Part shown: piece by piece, positions 10,518-64,000 of the stretch
How positions within the stretch are numbered: the stretch's first letter is position 1
How the letters are laid out: the number at the start of each line of letters is the position of its first letter
DNA from: a virus
Lineage: Duplodnaviria; Caudoviricetes
IMG/VR virus record: IMGVR_UViG_3300007214_000006
Strand: one strand, 5' to 3'
DNA: 64,000 nt
The notes under the pieces: model-generated
Told to the model about the DNA's origin: nothing
The model's database searches: none
What the model saw: the letters and a program-made list of their open reading frames with translations, nothing else
Made by a program: the position numbers and the translations under genes

Positions 10518-11340
10518 GATACAAATAGAAAATCATGATTTTTATTATTTAGATTCAGATGATCCTGTAATATCTAATCTAAAAACAAAAAAACTATATG
10601 GCTTAAGCAATTATATACTATTAAAACATTTTTCTCAGAATGCACAAGGATGGATTATAGACTGCGGCGCTCACATAGGAACATTCTCTTTTGTGCCAGC
10701 TATAGAACAAAATAAAATACTGCTCATTGAAGCAGCTACTCAGAATTACGAATGCTTAGAATTAACATTTAAACATTTTACTAATGCTATTATAGAAAAA
10801 GCTATAGTATTAGATAAAAAACAGAACTGTAATTTTTCTTCAGATTATGGGCCATTTGGCTCGCCAGTATTGGAAGACTCAGGCTCTGAACAATCAACAA
10901 CAATAGATGAAATATGCAATAAACACAATATAGATTCAGTATCTATGATAAAAATAGATATTGAAGGCTTTGAAGAAGAAGCAATCATAGGCGCTCAAGA
11001 TACAATTAATAAAAATAAACCAATTATGCTATTGGAAATAAATGGACATTGCCTAAGAATTAGAAATAAAAAACCATTAAGTATTTTTCAAAAAATAGAA
11101 GATATGAATTATTTTTCATTTATTATTAATGGTAATATCTTAATACCAATAAATAAAAATGACAAATTCCCATTTTGTGTCACAGACGTTCTTTGTATCC
11201 ATAGAGATAATATTCATAAATATATTGGTTTTTGTAAAATTTCTGATCAACTATCCAATGACGATATAGAAAAAATACTAGAGCATAATTATGCACAGTC
11301 TAATGAGGATTGTAAAAAATATTTTCAAACTATAGTATAA
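10510..11340 (+). CDS. FkbM-family methyltransferase
   Basis: IDCGAHIG, LIEA, IKIDIEGFE..I.GA...I....P. Confidence 0.88.
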   Translation: MNKIQIENHDFYYLDSDDPVISNLKTKKLYGLSNYILLKHFSQNAQGWIIDCGAHIGTFSFVPAIEQNKILLIEAATQNYECLELTFKHFTNAIIEKAIVLDKKQNCNFSSDYGPFGSPVLEDSGSEQSTTIDEICNKHNIDSVSMIKIDIEGFEEEAIIGAQDTINKNKPIMLLEINGHCLRIRNKKPLSIFQKIEDMNYFSFIINGNILIPINKNDKFPFCVTDVLCIHRDNIHKYIGFCKISDQLSNDDIEKILEHNYAQSNEDCKKYFQTIV

Positions 11341-11346
11341 TAGCAC

Positions 11347-11550
11347 ATGCCAAAATATTATGTCAAATCAGGACAAATTAAATTTATAGTTGACTGTACT
11401 GATCACATATGTGCTATATTAGCTGCGCTAACTCATTATAAGGGTAAAGGTATTTTGACTGGACCAAAGATATGCGTTGGAGAGCAAGGGTTCGAAGATT
11501 TTAAAAAATGGAAATGTTATGATACGGATAAATTTTTGAAAGAAATATGA
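11347..11550 (+). CDS. hypothetical protein
   Basis: MPKYYVKSG ORF; its stop overlaps the guaC start. Confidence 0.6.
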   Translation: MPKYYVKSGQIKFIVDCTDHICAILAALTHYKGKGILTGPKICVGEQGFEDFKKWKCYDTDKFLKEI

Positions 11551-12668
11551 TGCAAAAAATAATTAACGAAATTAAGTTAGATTTTGATGATGTTCTAATA
11601 AGACCAAAAAGATCAACACTAAATAGTAGAGCAGAGGTTTGTCTTCAAAGAGAATTCAAATTTAAATATTCTCCAAGAAAATTATTAACTGTTCCTATTA
11701 TGGTTGCAAATATGGATACAGTAGGAACATTCGCTATGGCTAAATCTTTAGGTGTCCAGAGGGCTATTACTTGTCTACATAAGCATTATAAAATAAACGA
11801 ATACGTTGCATTTTATACAGATCCTAGCATAGTCAATAAAAATCTTGCATTTTATTCTATTGGAACAAGTGAAAAAGATATCATGAAAGCTGTTGATGTA
11901 TTCAACCAAATAAAAAGTTTTAAACTTGAACCTCCAAATATTTGTTTGGATGTCGCCAATGGATACACAGAACAGTTTGTAAAAACAGCATATAGACTTC
12001 GTAATTTGTTTCCCGATTCCATAATTATGGCTGGAAATGTAGTCACTCCAGAAATGACAGAAGAATTGATCATTCATGGTCAGGTAGATATAGTAAAGGT
12101 TGGTATAGGATCTGGTAGCGTGTGTACCACGCGGTTAAAAACTGGTGTGGGATACCCCCAATTGAGTGCCGTAATGGAGTGTGCGGATGCTGCACACGGT
12201 CTTGGCGGACACATTTGTTCAGATGGTGGGTGTAAAGTTGTTGGAGATGTTTGCAAGGCATTTGGAGGTAATAGTGATTTTGTTATGTTGGGCAGTATAT
12301 TTGCTGGTGTTGACGAATGTGAAGGAGAATGGAAGTACGAGTACCTTACTGCTCAAGGATTTTGGCAACCATTAAGCCCAAATGACTTGATTGATTGCAC
12401 AAAAAGAAAAGTATCTTTAAAATACTATGGTATGAGTAGTAAAAACGCTATGGATAAACACCACAATGGTATTGCACAATACAGAACATCTGAAGGTAAA
12501 TGCGTAGTAGTTCCATATAAAGGAACAGCTGAAGAAATTATTAATGATATTTATGGAGGAATACGAAGCGCTTGCACATATATTGGTGCTAATAAAATTA
12601 AAGACTTTGGGAAAAAAACAACATTCATGCAGGTAAACAATACACACAATAAAGTATACGAAAAATGA
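11547..12668 (+). CDS. guaC: GMP reductase
   Basis: KLDFDDVLIRPKRSTL.SR, VANMDTVGT, DVANGY, KVGIGSGSVCTTR..TGVGYPQLSAV.ECADAAHG, YYGMSS, SEGK. Confidence 0.95.
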   Translation: MMQKIINEIKLDFDDVLIRPKRSTLNSRAEVCLQREFKFKYSPRKLLTVPIMVANMDTVGTFAMAKSLGVQRAITCLHKHYKINEYVAFYTDPSIVNKNLAFYSIGTSEKDIMKAVDVFNQIKSFKLEPPNICLDVANGYTEQFVKTAYRLRNLFPDSIIMAGNVVTPEMTEELIIHGQVDIVKVGIGSGSVCTTRLKTGVGYPQLSAVMECADAAHGLGGHICSDGGCKVVGDVCKAFGGNSDFVMLGSIFAGVDECEGEWKYEYLTAQGFWQPLSPNDLIDCTKRKVSLKYYGMSSKNAMDKHHNGIAQYRTSEGKCVVVPYKGTAEEIINDIYGGIRSACTYIGANKIKDFGKKTTFMQVNNTHNKVYEK

Positions 12669-49627: not shown

Positions 49628-50356
49628 TTGAAAAAAAATAATAAAACTGGTAAAAATAAACAAAAAATTATTGATGCAACAAATTCTATTCAGCCAAACA
49701 TATCAACATATAGGAATAAATTAAAACCAAGAACAGAAAATCAAAAAAATTATATTAGATCAGTCTTAGATAATACTATCACGTTTTGTCAAGGATTAGC
49801 TGGTAGTGGCAAAACACATATAGCTATAGGTATGGCTATAGAATTTTTACTAGAAAATAAAATCAATAAGATTATTATAACTAGGCCGGTACTGGAAGCT
49901 GGAGAAAAAATAGGATATTTACCAGGATCAGCAGAAGAAAAATTACATCCATATCTTTTACCAATTATAGATGAAATTCATTATTTTATAAATCCAGCAC
50001 AATATGCTGCTTTTAAACTAAATAATAAAATAGAGGTTGTACCACTTGGACTTATGCGGGGTAGAAATTTTCATAACGCTTTTATTGTTGCTGATGAATG
50101 TCAAAATGCGTCTTACGAACAATTAAAAATGTTATTAACAAGAACTGGCCAACAAAGTAAAATGGTACTTACCGGAGATATAGGACAATCTGACCTCAGT
50201 AGGCATTTGCAGGGTGGTTTTATTACGATGATAGAAGCTCTTAATGGTGTTAATGGAATAGGATATTGTAAATTAGAGTCATCTGATATTGTTAGAAATC
50301 CTATAATATCAGATATTTTACTAAGACTAGATGATTATGAAAGAAATAAATCATAA
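49628..50356 (+). CDS. phoH: PhoH-family ATPase (TTG start)
   Basis: KPRTENQ, GLAGSGKT, IIITRP, GYLPG, MRGRNF, DECQN, GDIGQSD. Confidence 0.95.
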   Translation: MKKNNKTGKNKQKIIDATNSIQPNISTYRNKLKPRTENQKNYIRSVLDNTITFCQGLAGSGKTHIAIGMAIEFLLENKINKIIITRPVLEAGEKIGYLPGSAEEKLHPYLLPIIDEIHYFINPAQYAAFKLNNKIEVVPLGLMRGRNFHNAFIVADECQNASYEQLKMLLTRTGQQSKMVLTGDIGQSDLSRHLQGGFITMIEALNGVNGIGYCKLESSDIVRNPIISDILLRLDDYERNKS

Positions 50357-50939
50357 GCAATGTTTATTATTAAATGCTGATTATACTCCGATACGGATTA
50401 TATCATGGAAAAAGGCTATTGTATGGTCTATGAAATACGAACCGAACCATAAATATGGTATCGAGATTATATCTTATTATCAAGATGAAGTTATACGTGG
50501 CGCGTGTGGTAAAAACTATTTGGTTCCTGCTGTTGCTAGAACCAGGCATTTCTTCAATCTATATAATAAAAATATTAATTTTTCACGAAAAAATTTATTT
50601 ATCAGAGATGATTATACCTGTCAATATTGTGGTAAACAATTTCCTGTATCTCAATTAACATATGATCATATTATTCCAAAAAGCAGATTTGATATTCACA
50701 CCAAACATAAATGCACAAATTGGATTAATATCGTAACATGCTGTTGGCAATGTAATCATAAAAAAGGAAATAAAACACCAAAAGAAGCAAATATGAAATT
50801 GCTTAATCAGCCTATAATTCCAAAATATTGTGCCGTATACTTGCCCTGGTACCGAGATCTATTTACTATAAATAACAGTTTTCCTGAATGGAATCCATTT
50901 ATAAAGGGTTTGATTAATAATGAAAATAAATGTATCTGA
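50331..50939 (+). CDS. HNH endonuclease (McrA-like)
   Basis: LLLNADYTP, RDDYTCQYCG, LTYDHIIPKS, NIVTCCWQCNHKKGNKTP. Confidence 0.9.
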   Translation: MIMKEINHKQCLLLNADYTPIRIISWKKAIVWSMKYEPNHKYGIEIISYYQDEVIRGACGKNYLVPAVARTRHFFNLYNKNINFSRKNLFIRDDYTCQYCGKQFPVSQLTYDHIIPKSRFDIHTKHKCTNWINIVTCCWQCNHKKGNKTPKEANMKLLNQPIIPKYCAVYLPWYRDLFTINNSFPEWNPFIKGLINNENKCI

Positions 50940-58589: not shown

Positions 58590-59632
58590 TAACATATTTT
58601 AGATCGTCTAGCTTTAATGCTCATTCTATGTGCGAGCAGCAATATTTTATAGAATATGTTTTGGGTTGGAGAGGACCGTCTGGACAAAAGGCGGACAAAG
58701 GAACAATAGTACACAAAGTGCTAGAAGTATTAGCCGTTATTAAAAAAGCTAAACAAGATAATTTAACATTTATATGCGATGATATCATTGGTAATATTGA
58801 TATAAATAACTATAATCTTGATAATTTAATAGATATAATATACAACCATTACTCACTATCAGCAAAACATCATAAATGGTATCCAAAAGACAAAAAAGAC
58901 TGTGCAGAATGGGTTTATAAGGCTATTAATTTTAATGATGGTATGTTCGATCCCAGAAATAGAAATATTTTGGAACCAGAGCAGCATTTTGATTTTACTA
59001 TAAATAAATCTTGGTCACAATATTCTTATAAAACACCAGATGGAGTTATTTCAGGTAATCTGGCCCTAAAAGGAACTATAGACTTAATAACGTTAGTTAA
59101 TGAAAAAACTATAGAAATTATCGATTGGAAAACAGGAAAAAGATTAGATTGGGCTACTGGCCAAGAAAAAACTCAAGAAAAACTAGAAAATGATCCTCAA
59201 TTAAGAATATATCATTATGCTATCAGTCATTTGTATCCTCAGATCGAACATATAATTTTTTCTATATATTTTATAAATGATGGCGGACCATTCTCTATAT
59301 GTTTTGATAAAAATGATCTTCAAAAAACAGAAGATATGCTAAGACAAAAATTTGATATAATAAAGTCTGCAAAAAGGCCAAAATTGCACAAAAGCTGGAT
59401 GTGTAATAAACTATGTCATTTTGGCAAAACAAATTTTTCTGATTCAAGCATATTGCCTATATTAGAATACAGAGATGGGCAAATATGCAAACAGGGCGAA
59501 TTTATGACTAAATGTGAACAAATCAAACATGATTTAGAGTTGCATGGTATGGATTTTGTTGTACAATCATATAAGCATCCAAATCATTCATTTGGAAAAT
59601 ATAAAGCACCAGGAAGTATAGAAGGAGAATAA
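58583..59632 (+). CDS. PD-(D/E)XK exonuclease, Cas4/AddB-like (proposed ATT start; first ATG is at 58628)
   Basis: S.S....C.Q.Y, GTIVHKVLE, LKGTIDL, IIDWKTG, QLRIY and C-terminal Cys cluster; AAGGAG 9 nt upstream of the ATT at 58583. Confidence 0.8.
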   Translation: MIITYFRSSSFNAHSMCEQQYFIEYVLGWRGPSGQKADKGTIVHKVLEVLAVIKKAKQDNLTFICDDIIGNIDINNYNLDNLIDIIYNHYSLSAKHHKWYPKDKKDCAEWVYKAINFNDGMFDPRNRNILEPEQHFDFTINKSWSQYSYKTPDGVISGNLALKGTIDLITLVNEKTIEIIDWKTGKRLDWATGQEKTQEKLENDPQLRIYHYAISHLYPQIEHIIFSIYFINDGGPFSICFDKNDLQKTEDMLRQKFDIIKSAKRPKLHKSWMCNKLCHFGKTNFSDSSILPILEYRDGQICKQGEFMTKCEQIKHDLELHGMDFVVQSYKHPNHSFGKYKAPGSIEGE

Positions 59633-59635
59633 GTA

Positions 59636-61513
59636 ATGGGCGTGATTAAGGAATATGTTCCTTTACACGTCCATTCCTAAGTGACTCATTATTCACTTTT
59701 GGATGGACTAAGTAAACCAGAACAAATAGCTAAACGATGTCAAAAAATAGGAGCAAGCACGTGTGCAATAACGGATCACGGGACCATATCCGGATCCGTT
59801 CAGTTTTATGCTTCTATGAAAAAATACGGAATTAAACCAATCCTAGGATGCGAATTATATATCAGTCATAATGATTGTATGATAAAAAGTCCAGATAATT
59901 CAAAATTAAGTCATTTCATAATTTTAGCTAAAAACTATGAGGGTTGGAAATCTTTAATAAAAATAGTATCTAAAACAAATACTCCTGATGTATTTTATCA
60001 TAAGCCAAGAATAGATATAGATACTTTGTTACCATACCTGGATGGCAATATTATTGGTTTTGCTGGTCATCTCGGTTCTGTTATAGCTAACGCCATAAAA
60101 GACCAGGATTCGAACTATACAATCAATTTGATTCAAAAATTAAAAGATGGTTTTGGTGAGAATAATTTTTTTCTTGAGTCTCAACTAATAGATCAAGAAC
60201 AAAATATTGATCAAATTAATTTAACAAAAGAAGTTAGAAGACTGGCACAGATCACAAAAACAAAAGTCATAGCTACTCCAGATGCTCATTATTGCGAATC
60301 TGATGATGCTGTTGATCAAAGAATTTTATTATGCAATAATTTAAAAACAACATTAACAGAGATAAATAGAAAGCTTATTGCAGATGAAGAGGCTCCTATG
60401 TCATGTTTTTTTAAATCTGATAAGTATCATATTCCAAATTTTGACGAAATGAATAATATACATTCTACAGAAGAGCTGTATAATACGATAGAATTAGCAA
60501 ATATGTGCGAAGATTATGATATTACAAATAAGCCAATGCTGCCTTTATTTAAATGTCCTAATTCTGATACTCCAGATGCATATCTTAGGCAATTATGTCG
60601 TAATGGATGGAAAGAAAAAATAGCCAATAATATACCTTCAAATATACAGGAAGAATATGTTGATAGAATCAAATACGAATTATCTGTTTTACAGGGCGCT
60701 GGGTTGTCCAGCTATTTTTTAATAGTGCAGGACATAGTGAACTATGTATCTTCTAATGGGTGGCTTCCTGGTCCCGGAAGAGGTAGCGCTGCTGGTTGTC
60801 TTGTGTCTTATCTAATAGGAATAACAAGTATAGATCCGATAAAAAATAATTTAATTTTTGAAAGATTCTATAATGCAGGAAGGAATACGAGCGACAGAGT
60901 TTCTATGCCAGATATAGATGTTGATGTTCCGATCAACAAACGAGAAGCTGTAGTAGAATATATAAAAAATAAATATGGCCATGATAAAGTGTCTCAAATG
61001 ATTACTTTTAATACGATGAAAGGTCGTGGCGCTCTTAAAGAAGTCCTTAGAGTTTATGGAAATATATCTTTTGACGAAATGAATAAAATTACAAAATACA
61101 TACCAGATGAAGCAAAAATAGCGGATGAATTACAAGAAATGAAAGAAGAAACAGGAGAGGCGTCCATTATTAGATGGGCTTTAGAAAATAATGTTGACAA
61201 ACTCAAGGAATGGTGTTATTTATTAGATGACGGTACGCTCGCCGGACCGCTTGCTAAAAGATTCGAACAAGCAATTAGACTAGAAGGAACCAAATCTAAT
61301 CAGTCAAAGCATGCTGCTGGAGTCGTTATATCTCAAGAAAAATTATCGGAGATTTGCCCAATGGTTTATGATAGTAAAAATAAACAGCTAATAGCAGGAA
61401 TGGAAATGCAAGATCTAGAATCTTTAGGTGTAATCAAATTTGATATCCTAGGCATAGCCATGTTAGATAAAATTATGAATATTTCACAAATATTAGCTAA
61501 AGAAGGAGTTTAA
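59636..61513 (+). CDS. dnaE: DNA polymerase III alpha, N-terminal part (PHP plus palm), with an in-frame TAA at 59678-59680
   Basis: MGVIKEYVPLHVHS*VTHYSLLDG, AITDHG, KPILGCE, DAHY, GPGRGSAAG, FERFYN, MPDIDVD, HAAGVVI, KFDILG. Confidence 0.9.
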
Positions 61514-61514
61514 A

Positions 61515-61694
61515 ATGAATAAAGTTTTTTCAGAATTAGCTATCGGAGATAGATTTGAACTAAATGGAAATAGTTATATTAAAATTCAAGAAGTAAGAGT
61601 TAGTTGTTGCAGATCAATAAATGCTCAGGACGCAAATAATCCGTCGAGCAAAACGTTTGTGCAAGCAACAACCACGGTGACAGTTAATGCCTAA
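61515..61694 (+). CDS. 59-aa hypothetical protein between the dnaE halves (not in ORF track)
   Basis: MNKVFSELAIGDRFELNGNSYIKIQEVRVSCC...; AAGGAG RBS; stop overlaps the next gene. Confidence 0.7.
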   Translation: MNKVFSELAIGDRFELNGNSYIKIQEVRVSCCRSINAQDANNPSSKTFVQATTTVTVNA

Positions 61695-62388
61695 TTTTCA
61701 AAAAATATGTGTGTTTGATATGGAAACTGACGGGGTTAACCCTGATCAGTGTAGTCCTGTGCAGATTGCTGCTGTTATTGTAGATCCAATAAAACTAGAA
61801 ATAGTTAAAGATTCCGAATTTAATATTAATTTAAAGCCAGAATTATTAGAAAATAATATAAGTTACAAATATGAAGATAGTGATGTTCTTGACTTTCATT
61901 CAAAAGTACGAGGTTGCTCCAAGTCTTCTATATTAGAATCTTGGGGCAAATACCAATCACAAGAGGCTGGTTGGAAAATGTTCGTTTCGTATCTTGAAAT
62001 GTATCATACAAAGTCTAACGGAACTAAAAAATCCTGCTTTTCTGCACCAATAGCTGCTGGCTTTAATATAAATAAATTTGATTTACGAATTATAGAGAGG
62101 CTTAGTGTAAAATATAATTCTCTAAATAAAGAAGGCAGATCCTCGTTGTTTTATCCCAGAGATGTAATTGATGTAATGAATCTTTTATTTTATTGGTTTG
62201 AATATAATAATGAACTTAAAAACTATACACTAGATAATCTAAGAGATTATTTGGGTATAGATAAAACTAATGCTCATGATGCATTAAAAGATGTGAAGGA
62301 CACAGCCAATATCATGATAAGGTTTTTAAAATTGCATAGAAACCTGTCTAATAAAGTTAAATTTAAAGGATCTTTTGTAAATGCCTAA
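61687..62388 (+). CDS. DEDDh 3'-5' exonuclease (DnaQ/epsilon-like)
   Basis: VFDMETDG, AGFNINKFD, IDVM, AHDALKDV. Confidence 0.88.
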   Translation: MPNFQKICVFDMETDGVNPDQCSPVQIAAVIVDPIKLEIVKDSEFNINLKPELLENNISYKYEDSDVLDFHSKVRGCSKSSILESWGKYQSQEAGWKMFVSYLEMYHTKSNGTKKSCFSAPIAAGFNINKFDLRIIERLSVKYNSLNKEGRSSLFYPRDVIDVMNLLFYWFEYNNELKNYTLDNLRDYLGIDKTNAHDALKDVKDTANIMIRFLKLHRNLSNKVKFKGSFVNA

Positions 62389-63997
62389 ATGGTCTTTTGA
62401 TTGCGGATGTTGTTTTGATATCATTGAGAATAATGGAGAGAAACATAAGTTATTATTTTCTCCAAAAATTGAATCTATAAATTTATGTTGCGCTAAAACA
62501 TGGGAATTGATTTCTTCTGGAAACACTAAAGGATGTTTCCAGTTAGAATCTAGATTAGGCCAAATGATGGCTAAAAAATTAAAACCAGAAAATATAGAAC
62601 AATTATCTGGACTAATCAGTATACTTAGGCCGGGATGCCTAGAAGCAATAAGAGATGGGAAAAGCGTAACAAACCATTATATAGATAAAAAAAATGGTCT
62701 GGAATCTATTAATTATTTCCATGAGGCTCTGGAGACCTCATTAAGTACCACCTACGGGGAAATGATATACCAAGAACAGGCTATGTCTATCGCAAAAGAT
62801 TTGGCTGGATTCGATTTACAAGAAGCAGATTCTTTAAGAAAAGCTATCGGAAAAAAGAAACCAGAAGAAATGGCAAAAGTTAAACAAAAATTTTTAGATG
62901 GCACAAAAAAACTTAATATAGTCAATCAAAAAGAAGCAGAAGAAATCTTTGGATGGATAGAAAAAAGTCAAAGATATTCATTCAATAAATCTCACGGTAT
63001 TTCATATGCTATGAACGCATATTTATCGGCGTATGCTAAAGCCCATTTTCCGGAAGCCTTTTTTGTTTCTTATTTAAAATTTGCTAAGGACAAAATAGAC
63101 CCACAACAAGAAATCAAAGAATTAATTAAAAATGCCACGGAAATGGATATAAATATCTGTCTGCCAGATTTAAGACTACAAAACTCTAATTTCGGAATCT
63201 TTAATAATAAAATTTATTTTGGTTTAACAGACATAAAGGGTGTTGGGGACTCAGTGTTTGCTAAATTATCGGATATATGTAAAAATATTGATCTATATAA
63301 AATATCATGGACTGAACTGCTTATCAAAATTTTATTAAATATAAATTCCACAGCGGCTAAAGCTTTGATTTCTAGCGGAGCAATTGATTATCTTAATAAA
63401 AATCGTACAGAAATGTTGTTTGATCTAGAAATAATAAGCTCTCTTACTAAAAAAGAATTAGAATACATTGCGCCTATACTATCGAACACCATTACCTTAA
63501 AAGATATTATGAGTTATCTTATTAATTACTCAAAAGTGAATACAAAAAGAAAACAAGCAATACAAAGCTTATTGCAAACTATTAAAAATCCGCCGTATTC
63601 CTTAATAGATAAAATAGAATGGTTAGCAGATACGGAGTCATCTTTATTGGGTACGGCGATCTCTTGCTCAAAATTAGACACATATGACATAGAAATGACA
63701 AACACAGATTGCAAAACATTTAAAACTACAAATAGTATTTCTAATATTATAATGGCTGGAGAAATTACTAATATTAATATTATAAAAACAAAAAAAGGAA
63801 AATTATCCGGTCAAGAAATGTCTTTTGTCTCAATAGAAGATCAAACTGGTTCTCTAGATTCTGTGATATTTTTTCCAGAAATCTATGCAAAATATAAACA
63901 CCATTTATTCGAAAATAATATTTTAATATTTGTGGGAAATAAGAGCAAAACAAAGGATGGTTTGATTGTGGATAAGTGTTTTGTGCCTAGGTCTTGA
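62381..63997 (+). CDS. dnaE: DNA polymerase III alpha, C-terminal part (fingers, HhH, OB fold)
   Basis: TWELI..G.TKGCFQLES, LRPG, TYG.MIYQEQ, LRKAIGKKK, YSFNKSH, FGLTDIKGVG, TKKG..MSF..IED. Confidence 0.92.
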   Translation: MPKWSFDCGCCFDIIENNGEKHKLLFSPKIESINLCCAKTWELISSGNTKGCFQLESRLGQMMAKKLKPENIEQLSGLISILRPGCLEAIRDGKSVTNHYIDKKNGLESINYFHEALETSLSTTYGEMIYQEQAMSIAKDLAGFDLQEADSLRKAIGKKKPEEMAKVKQKFLDGTKKLNIVNQKEAEEIFGWIEKSQRYSFNKSHGISYAMNAYLSAYAKAHFPEAFFVSYLKFAKDKIDPQQEIKELIKNATEMDINICLPDLRLQNSNFGIFNNKIYFGLTDIKGVGDSVFAKLSDICKNIDLYKISWTELLIKILLNINSTAAKALISSGAIDYLNKNRTEMLFDLEIISSLTKKELEYIAPILSNTITLKDIMSYLINYSKVNTKRKQAIQSLLQTIKNPPYSLIDKIEWLADTESSLLGTAISCSKLDTYDIEMTNTDCKTFKTTNSISNIIMAGEITNINIIKTKKGKLSGQEMSFVSIEDQTGSLDSVIFFPEIYAKYKHHLFENNILIFVGNKSKTKDGLIVDKCFVPRS

Positions 63998-64000
63998 CAT

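Follow-up and report, generated by a model that had tools for sequence, protein, structure and literature searches.

A phage DnaE-type DNA polymerase encoded in two halves with a DEDDh exonuclease gene between them

The window analysed here is a stretch of 64,000 nucleotides of viral DNA (IMG/VR virus record IMGVR_UViG_3300007214_000006; Duplodnaviria; Caudoviricetes), and the system in question is its C-family (DnaE-type) DNA polymerase, the gene of which is divided into two separate halves. Four tightly packed open reading frames (ORFs) were found on the plus strand in the order DnaE-N, orf59, DEDDh exonuclease and DnaE-C. The gene anatomy, the complementarity of the halves, their conservation, the purifying selection acting on them and the lack of an intein or intron signature are direct observations, and on these grounds we consider it highly probable that the products make up a non-covalent two-chain polymerase that is co-expressed with a proofreader. 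Such an enzyme had been put forward in an original prediction made from the letters of the window without database searches, and the 59-aa ORF and the DEDDh exonuclease that it described between the halves, with overlapping start and stop codons, were indeed seen. The features of the locus are:

59681-61513, plus strand: DnaE-N (GTG start as conventionally called), 610 aa, with PHP, palm and thumb
61503-61517, plus strand: coupling junction of DnaE-N and orf59, with AAGGAG within the final codons of the N half, TAA at 61511-61513, one base and the orf59 ATG at 61515
61515-61694, plus strand: orf59, 59 aa
61687-62388, plus strand: DEDDh 3'-5' exonuclease, 233 aa
62381-63997, plus strand: DnaE-C, 538 aa, with fingers, HhH clamp-binding domain and OB fold
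62381-62491, plus strand: N-terminal leader of the C half, with invariant C8, G9, C10, F12 and C37

Pfam searches identified PHP and the entire DNA_pol3_alpha palm profile (2-260 of 260) in DnaE-N, and the finger domain (19-164 of 166), HHH_6 and OB in DnaE-C, which is without a tau-binding tail. According to the NCBIfam models TIGR00594 and PRK05673 and to alignments with PDB structures, the features of a DnaE-type C-family polymerase are present in the order known from DnaE, but they are spread over two ORFs and not encoded as a single polypeptide: DnaE-N terminates with TAA at 61511-61513 and DnaE-C has a separate ATG at 62381. The halves abut on three independent full-length DnaE models, with nothing missing and nothing duplicated. 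On the profile of PHROG 405, DnaE-N covers positions 51-615 and DnaE-C 612-1055, on PRK05673 the corresponding positions are 13-576 and 573-1052, and on E. coli alpha they are 14-564 and 586-900 plus the OB domain at 993-1054. All catalytic aspartates are located in the N half (D411 and D413, the PDIDVD pair, 60911-60919; D588 in KFDILG, 61442-61444), the C half holds the finger motifs ADxLRKAIGKKK and YSFNKSH as well as ADSLRKAIGKKK, and the catalytic residues are conserved on both chains. Therefore, any active site would have to be composite. DnaE-N ends 19 residues past KFDILG, confirming that the N part stops just after this motif, and the break lies ~20 residues past the third catalytic aspartate. 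By the published domain limits, the palm of E. coli alpha ends near residue 560, which would place the cut at the border of palm and fingers. That the C part resumes behind a new leader containing CGCC was also borne out (MPKWSFDCGCC); its resumption about 40 residues before GCFQLES was not, since the leader is ~50 residues long and GCFQLES starts at residue 51.

A scan of IMG/VR yielded 80 related loci, with 68-90% identity to the window in the N half. The stop codon of the N half and the ATG of orf59 are separated by 1 nt in the window and by 1-2 nt in the majority of the loci, orf59 and the exonuclease gene overlap by 8 nt, as do the exonuclease gene and DnaE-C, and the junctions are coupled in nearly all of these loci. 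Together with the full set of DEDDh catalytic motifs, these junctions agree with the claim that the polymerase is co-translated with an exonuclease. The 867 nt between the DnaE halves are entirely coding and conserved. AATGCCTAA, which is repeated at both borders of the exonuclease gene, was considered as a target-site duplication and rejected, as it is the 8-nt ATG...TAA overlap that is common across relatives.

The arrangement is found far beyond the window. All 80 loci, which range from 60 to 90% in identity, have the genes encoding DnaB, primase, dNMP (deoxynucleoside monophosphate) kinase, the PD-(D/E)XK nuclease, DnaE-N, orf59, the exonuclease and DnaE-C in this order, as far as the contig reaches, and this conservation of the four-gene arrangement is far beyond chance. 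Nei-Gojobori omega values amounted to 0.01-0.09 for DnaE-N, the exonuclease and DnaE-C and to 0.05-0.3 for orf59. More than 7,900 clusters (90% identity) match the N half; the best 120 are all 605-630 aa long and comprise PHP and palm domains only. In an exhaustive search of 1.84 billion protein representatives, about 142 of the best 150 representatives of 50%-identity clusters (39-67% identity) end 12-37 residues past the KxDxLG motif. The breakpoint survey that had been proposed as a check thus came out in favour of a shared endpoint, and the split DnaE organisation is a real, conserved and abundant variant. A description of this DnaE split was not found in a literature search.

Exceptions among the best 150 are contiguous DnaE proteins (P0136, P0165 and P0205), a contiguous DnaE with an intein (P0130), two proteins with an intein N-fragment at their end, close to the cyanobacterial site (P0137 and P0144), and one with a longer tail of 48 residues past the motif (P0200). 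In another one (P0252, 762 aa), the N half with PHP and palm continues at the breakpoint into a circularly permuted YpsA/SLOG (cpYpsA) domain. In a rough FastTree phylogeny with weak support and a root on a single outgroup, the contiguous and intein-containing forms make up two small clades nested among split forms, which hints at re-fusion. The contiguous relatives have neither the CxC...C leader described below nor an adjacent exonuclease; in one of them (L084), no exonuclease was found within 5 kb. Contiguous relatives combined with relaxed selection on the halves had been named as an outcome that would speak against the prediction; contiguous forms do exist among the relatives, in small number, but purifying selection on the halves is strong.

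More distant split relatives differ in what lies between the halves. One has only the exonuclease gene there (L141: N, exonuclease, C, orf59 being absent), another the genes for uracil-DNA glycosylase (UDG) and the exonuclease (P0274 contig), a third UDG, a 150-aa ORF and the exonuclease (L138, 3648-4591) and a fourth two small membrane proteins, a dual-specificity (DSPc) phosphatase, the exonuclease and a 65-aa ORF (L083, 5306-7252). In L139, no C half was found within 3.9 kb. Since the exonuclease gene lies just before the C half or close to it in distant split relatives, the exonuclease is the widely conserved companion; orf59 is specific to the subgroup of the window. The linker between the DnaE halves behaves as an insertion hotspot. 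A scan of genome contigs revealed four close matches in lake metagenome-assembled genomes, each from a different phylum. These are probably phage contigs that were binned wrongly, and they give no host inference; the other matches were cellular DnaE proteins with at most 31% identity.

The exonuclease matches the Pfam family RNase_T, and its motifs Exo I (D11, E13), Exo II (D132) and Exo III (H197, D202) are invariant in 46 exonuclease sequences; its C-terminal tail, K-x-K-F-K-x-S-F, is conserved as well. Epsilon uses its C-terminal peptide to bind the PHP domain. The best match of known structure, though a weak one, was the exonuclease domain of T. maritima PolC (2p1j, E = 8e-6). In cultured phages, tblastn matches to the exonuclease were confined to Bacteroides DAC phages, where the neighbour is terminase-like and not DnaE, and these matches were set aside as irrelevant. 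In orf59, residues F14, C31, C32, N36 and V55 are invariant. It has no family match in Pfam, PHROG or NCBIfam, but an AlphaFold2 (AF2) model with a pLDDT of 95.4 predicts a small all-beta barrel of the SH3/KOW/Tudor-like type. Fold searches and a protein atlas gave no functional match, only generic barrels of this kind and unnamed viral clusters. The idea that orf59 is a small helical subunit like theta (HolE), which binds epsilon, was rejected, as orf59 is all-beta and has no family match. The leader of DnaE-C is predicted to be a three-stranded beta meander. Its CxC...C motif was also found in the distant split relatives L083 and L141 but is absent from the contiguous relatives and from the basal split forms, i.e. 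L138 and Rossellomorea phage phiT1, a cultured phage that is compared below. The Cys leader may be a derived feature, an adaptation to the new chain end, and is possibly a metal site.

From these data we infer physical assembly of the chains, a proofreading role of the exonuclease and a function of the leader, as follows. The N chain would provide PHP, palm, thumb and the three catalytic aspartates and the C chain the fingers, with the basic residues that bind dNTPs (deoxynucleoside triphosphates) and YSFNKSH, plus HhH and OB; the two would assemble non-covalently to give a composite active site. DnaE-N, orf59, the exonuclease and DnaE-C would be made from one translationally coupled unit, so that near-equimolar products are expected. 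The DEDDh exonuclease is most likely a separate epsilon-like proofreading subunit and orf59 presumably an accessory protein, and the beta leader with its cysteines, restricted to split forms, probably steadies the new interface or binds metal. Three observations weigh against parts of this model. The exonuclease resembles epsilon at the superfamily level only. Neither orf59 nor the Cys leader is essential to the split as such, since L141 does without the former and L138 and phiT1 do without the latter. Further, tight co-translation is not obligatory, since several unrelated genes lie between the halves in some relatives.

Related phages do bear dnaE inteins, in the fingers in P0130, near the cyanobacterial site in the two proteins that end in an intein N-fragment, and two of them in P0177, and the cysteines of the C leader are superficially reminiscent of a +1 nucleophile. 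Nevertheless, it is very unlikely that the halves are rejoined, whether through a mini split intein that escaped recognition or through splicing of orf59 and the exonuclease gene out of the RNA. As had been predicted, intein motifs were not found: Pfam gave no match to an intein or Hint family in either DnaE half, and the half ends have neither a conserved nucleophile (Cys or Ser) where an intein would begin nor HN before a conserved Cys. The stretches that remain unaligned, an N tail of ~13 aa and a C leader of ~30 aa with together ~45 extra residues, are so few that they are too short for a HINT fold. A cmscan of 59000-64000 at E values up to 1, which covers Rfam families only, found no family and thus no Rfam intron, and the intervening 867 nt are coding and under purifying selection; splicing of the RNA, which had been named as a result that would overturn the prediction, was therefore not indicated. 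In addition, both halves have a start and a stop codon of their own, and these are coupled. The motif YSFNKSH, where the cyanobacterial intein sits, is intact at residues 199-205 of the C part, as originally noted, and the NCBIfam models of the two cyanobacterial halves (PRK09532 and PRK07373) meet at about residue 200 of the C part, ~200 residues downstream of the phage break. Fractured genes, in which split intein halves and a homing endonuclease gene lie between the gene halves (Dassa et al. 2009, PMC2677866), were considered as well, but the phage locus has a DEDDh exonuclease and a small beta-barrel protein between the halves and no intein parts.

Two further explanations accept the halves as separate chains. 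The split could be the tolerated scar of a selfish or cargo insertion, in which an exonuclease cassette entered a permissive linker that later became an insertion hotspot, and the split brought no benefit. The variable content between the halves (UDG, DSPc phosphatase, membrane proteins, small ORFs) fits this, as does phiT1, which has the same breakpoint without an exonuclease, and so do the two small clades that apparently re-fused or stayed contiguous. The topology behind the last point is, however, weakly supported, and a scar leaves the derived, invariant CxC...C leader and the near-universal adjacency of exonuclease and DnaE-C unexplained. Besides, it concerns the origin of the split and is compatible with a working two-chain enzyme. 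We consider it improbable as the full explanation. It is much less probable still that the products act separately, the N half as a minimal polymerase or PHP nuclease and the C half as a DNA- and clamp-binding factor, without forming a stable heterodimer. Minimal Pol III alpha modules are known from other jumbo phages (Iyer et al. 2021, PMC7824862), and the N half of P0252 is fused to cpYpsA instead; but the finger residues that bind dNTPs are found only in DnaE-C and the Asp triad only in DnaE-N, and the halves are always co-inherited wherever both are visible in the loci. We therefore retain the non-covalent two-chain polymerase as the preferred reading.

The original prediction had also suggested that the PHP domain is impaired and that the extrinsic proofreader may make up for this. 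In relatives with an uninterrupted N half, all nine positions of PHP metal ligands are kept: HxH, D, H, E, H, H (Cys in Taq), D and H align with the ligands of Taq and M. tuberculosis DnaE1. Since the nine positions are kept, the PHP domain of the family looks competent, and the compensation idea is unsupported. In the window phage, only the HxH pair is separated from the rest of PHP, lying upstream of an in-frame stop. The features at this 5' end of DnaE-N are:

59622-59627, plus strand: Shine-Dalgarno-like AAGGAG, 8 nt upstream of the mini-ORF start codon (ATG, 59636); no such element precedes the annotated GTG at 59681
59636-59680, plus strand: mini-ORF of 14 codons (MGVIKEYVPLHVHS plus TAA) encoding the actual N-terminus of the protein as well as the HxH pair of PHP metal ligands
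59636-59674, plus strand: stem-loop directly 5' of the take-off codon, with the 5' arm at 59636-59644 (ATGGGCGTG), a loop of 21 nt and the 3' arm at 59666-59674 (CACGTCCAT)
59675-59689, plus strand: candidate bypass site, with take-off codon TCC (59675-59677), TAA (59678-59680), the 9-nt gap TAAGTGACT (59678-59686) and the resume codon CAT (59687-59689)

The mini-ORF ends with ...PLHVHS-TAA, followed by GTG ACT and then by HYSLLDG; relatives that lack the 9 extra bases have PLHVHSHYSLLDG in a single ORF, and the HxH of Taq and M. tuberculosis DnaE1 aligns at the position of the HxH in the mini-ORF. An insert at the same point was found in 19 of the 78 loci in which the site was readable, the window included. 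A DNA pattern scan of IMG/VR revealed 50 such stretches with 22 gap variants of 8-12 nt, all at the same codon boundary. All 22 begin with TAA or TAG, and the lengths of 16 are not a multiple of three. Nineteen of them end with TCN (Ser), matching the take-off codon TCY, the third base varying freely; the other three, including that of the window, end with ACT. In the allele of the window, two of the three positions of ACT match, and a GTG lies in frame. Alleles with gaps of 10 or 11 nt have in general no usable in-frame start, and one locus (L018) has TGA directly before the resume point. The start codon falls within the 5' arm of the stem, and bases 1-9 of the mini-ORF are reverse-complementary to the nine bases immediately 5' of the take-off codon. 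Over 34 distinct sequences, all 306 cells of the 9-bp stem are paired. One pair is changed from G-C to A-U in 8 sequences, coupling a Val-to-Met exchange with a synonymous His change, i.e. a compensatory exchange. In the locus set selected by protein, all 16 interrupted alleles had 9/9 pairing and the 41 uninterrupted ones 4-8/9. Interruption occurs in scattered places on the tree of N halves and requires at least five changes.

Bypassing by the ribosome has been described for gene 60 of phage T4 and, with a short gap, for Streptomyces phage Hau3 (PMC10732093). The stop after the take-off codon, the take-off and landing codons (matched in 19 of the 22 gap variants), the 5' stem-loop, the Shine-Dalgarno-like spacer and the patchy, mobile-looking distribution match those of T4 gene 60 and the Hau3 terminase. 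For the family of cassettes taken together, bypassing seems to explain the features best; we are less sure for the ACT allele of the window. The gap differs from the 50 nt of T4 gene 60 with its 8-12 nt, and, unlike in these two systems, the start codon lies in the 5' stem arm, the nascent peptide has only 14-15 residues and an adjacent homing endonuclease is absent. The 5' stem could form only after the ribosome has moved on. The specific proposal, which we regard as evenly poised, is that the N half is decoded by programmed translational bypassing, a hop of 8-12 nt from UCY over the stop codon and a purine-rich spacer to UCN within PHP motif I joining the HxH to the remaining PHP domain. Reinitiation at the in-frame GTG of the window's allele would give PHP without HxH, so that in an ACU/GUG allele hop versus reinitiation could yield PHP-complete and PHP-truncated forms. 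If this is true, the intrinsic proofreader would be conditional and the DEDDh exonuclease constant, and the cassette would represent a rare natural case of short-range ribosome hopping with many sequence variants and built-in covariation.

The window has a GC content of ~30% and nearly all its genes are on the plus strand. The phage is a large, uncultured one from freshwater, and matching DNA contigs come from reservoir and freshwater metagenomes. The polymerase genes belong to a replication module in the last 9 kb that also encodes RecA, DnaB, primase, dNMP kinase and a PD-(D/E)XK nuclease. A free-standing HNH endonuclease gene is located at 50331-50939, between PhoH and the recombination and replication genes. 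Among relatives, the replication module is rich in selfish elements: several N-half relatives (P0131, P0138 and P0177) contain inteins, and in L141, LAGLIDADG matches were found in the dNMP kinase and glycosyltransferase genes (499-1938 and 10614-11896). In Bacillus phage vB_BceM_WH1 (L137, 3899-8097), dnaE is annotated in three pieces with non-coding gaps of ~700 and ~400 nt, which is probably an interruption of the intron type and unlike the split studied here.

Pol III alpha has so far been taken as a single-chain enzyme, with the intein-spliced case of cyanobacteria being the exception. In aquatic phages of a very large, abundant group, and in at least one cultured phage, palm and fingers appear to be on different polypeptides. 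This makes them a natural system to study the interface of palm and fingers in the C family, the recruitment of an external DEDDh exonuclease beside an intact PHP site and the linker as an insertion hotspot. Like the split DnaE of cyanobacteria (Ssp/Npu), the phage DnaE is divided between two genes, and one C-family polymerase would require the products of both. The cyanobacterial break, however, lies inside the fingers at YxFNKSH, corresponding to about residue 200 of the C part, and that of the phage ~200 residues upstream at the border of palm and fingers; the cyanobacterial halves carry intein fragments, are encoded by distant genes and are trans-spliced to one chain, whereas those of the phage have no intein and are encoded in one operon. 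With the Pol III core of E. coli (alpha-epsilon-theta), the phage shares a DnaE-type polymerase that is accompanied by a DEDDh exonuclease as a protein of its own and by a third, small protein. Alpha of E. coli, however, is a single chain and its PHP domain is degenerate; that of the phage family keeps all ligand positions, and theta is a helical bundle, with orf59 being an SH3/KOW-like beta barrel instead.

The closest cultured counterpart of the split is phiT1 (PV767480; L135, 2965-6247), a phage of a member of the Bacillaceae, in which gp20 ends 22 residues past KFDLLG and is followed by a 49-aa ORF (gp19) and gp18, the breakpoint being the same. Since phiT1 has been cultured with the same split, phages of this kind are viable; a paper that discusses its split was not found in the literature search. 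The proteins are ~34% identical to those of the window, an exonuclease between the halves and the CxC...C leader are both missing, and the 49-aa ORF shows no relationship to orf59. T4-like jumbo phages have a minimal split Pol III alpha, the two stand-alone proteins of which are thought to reconstitute the enzyme (Iyer et al. 2021, PMC7824862). Unlike the polymerase of the window, these modules are without PHP, HhH and OB, are encoded by distant genes, occur beside a family B replicase and have their break inside the nucleotidyltransferase core (PMC7824862).

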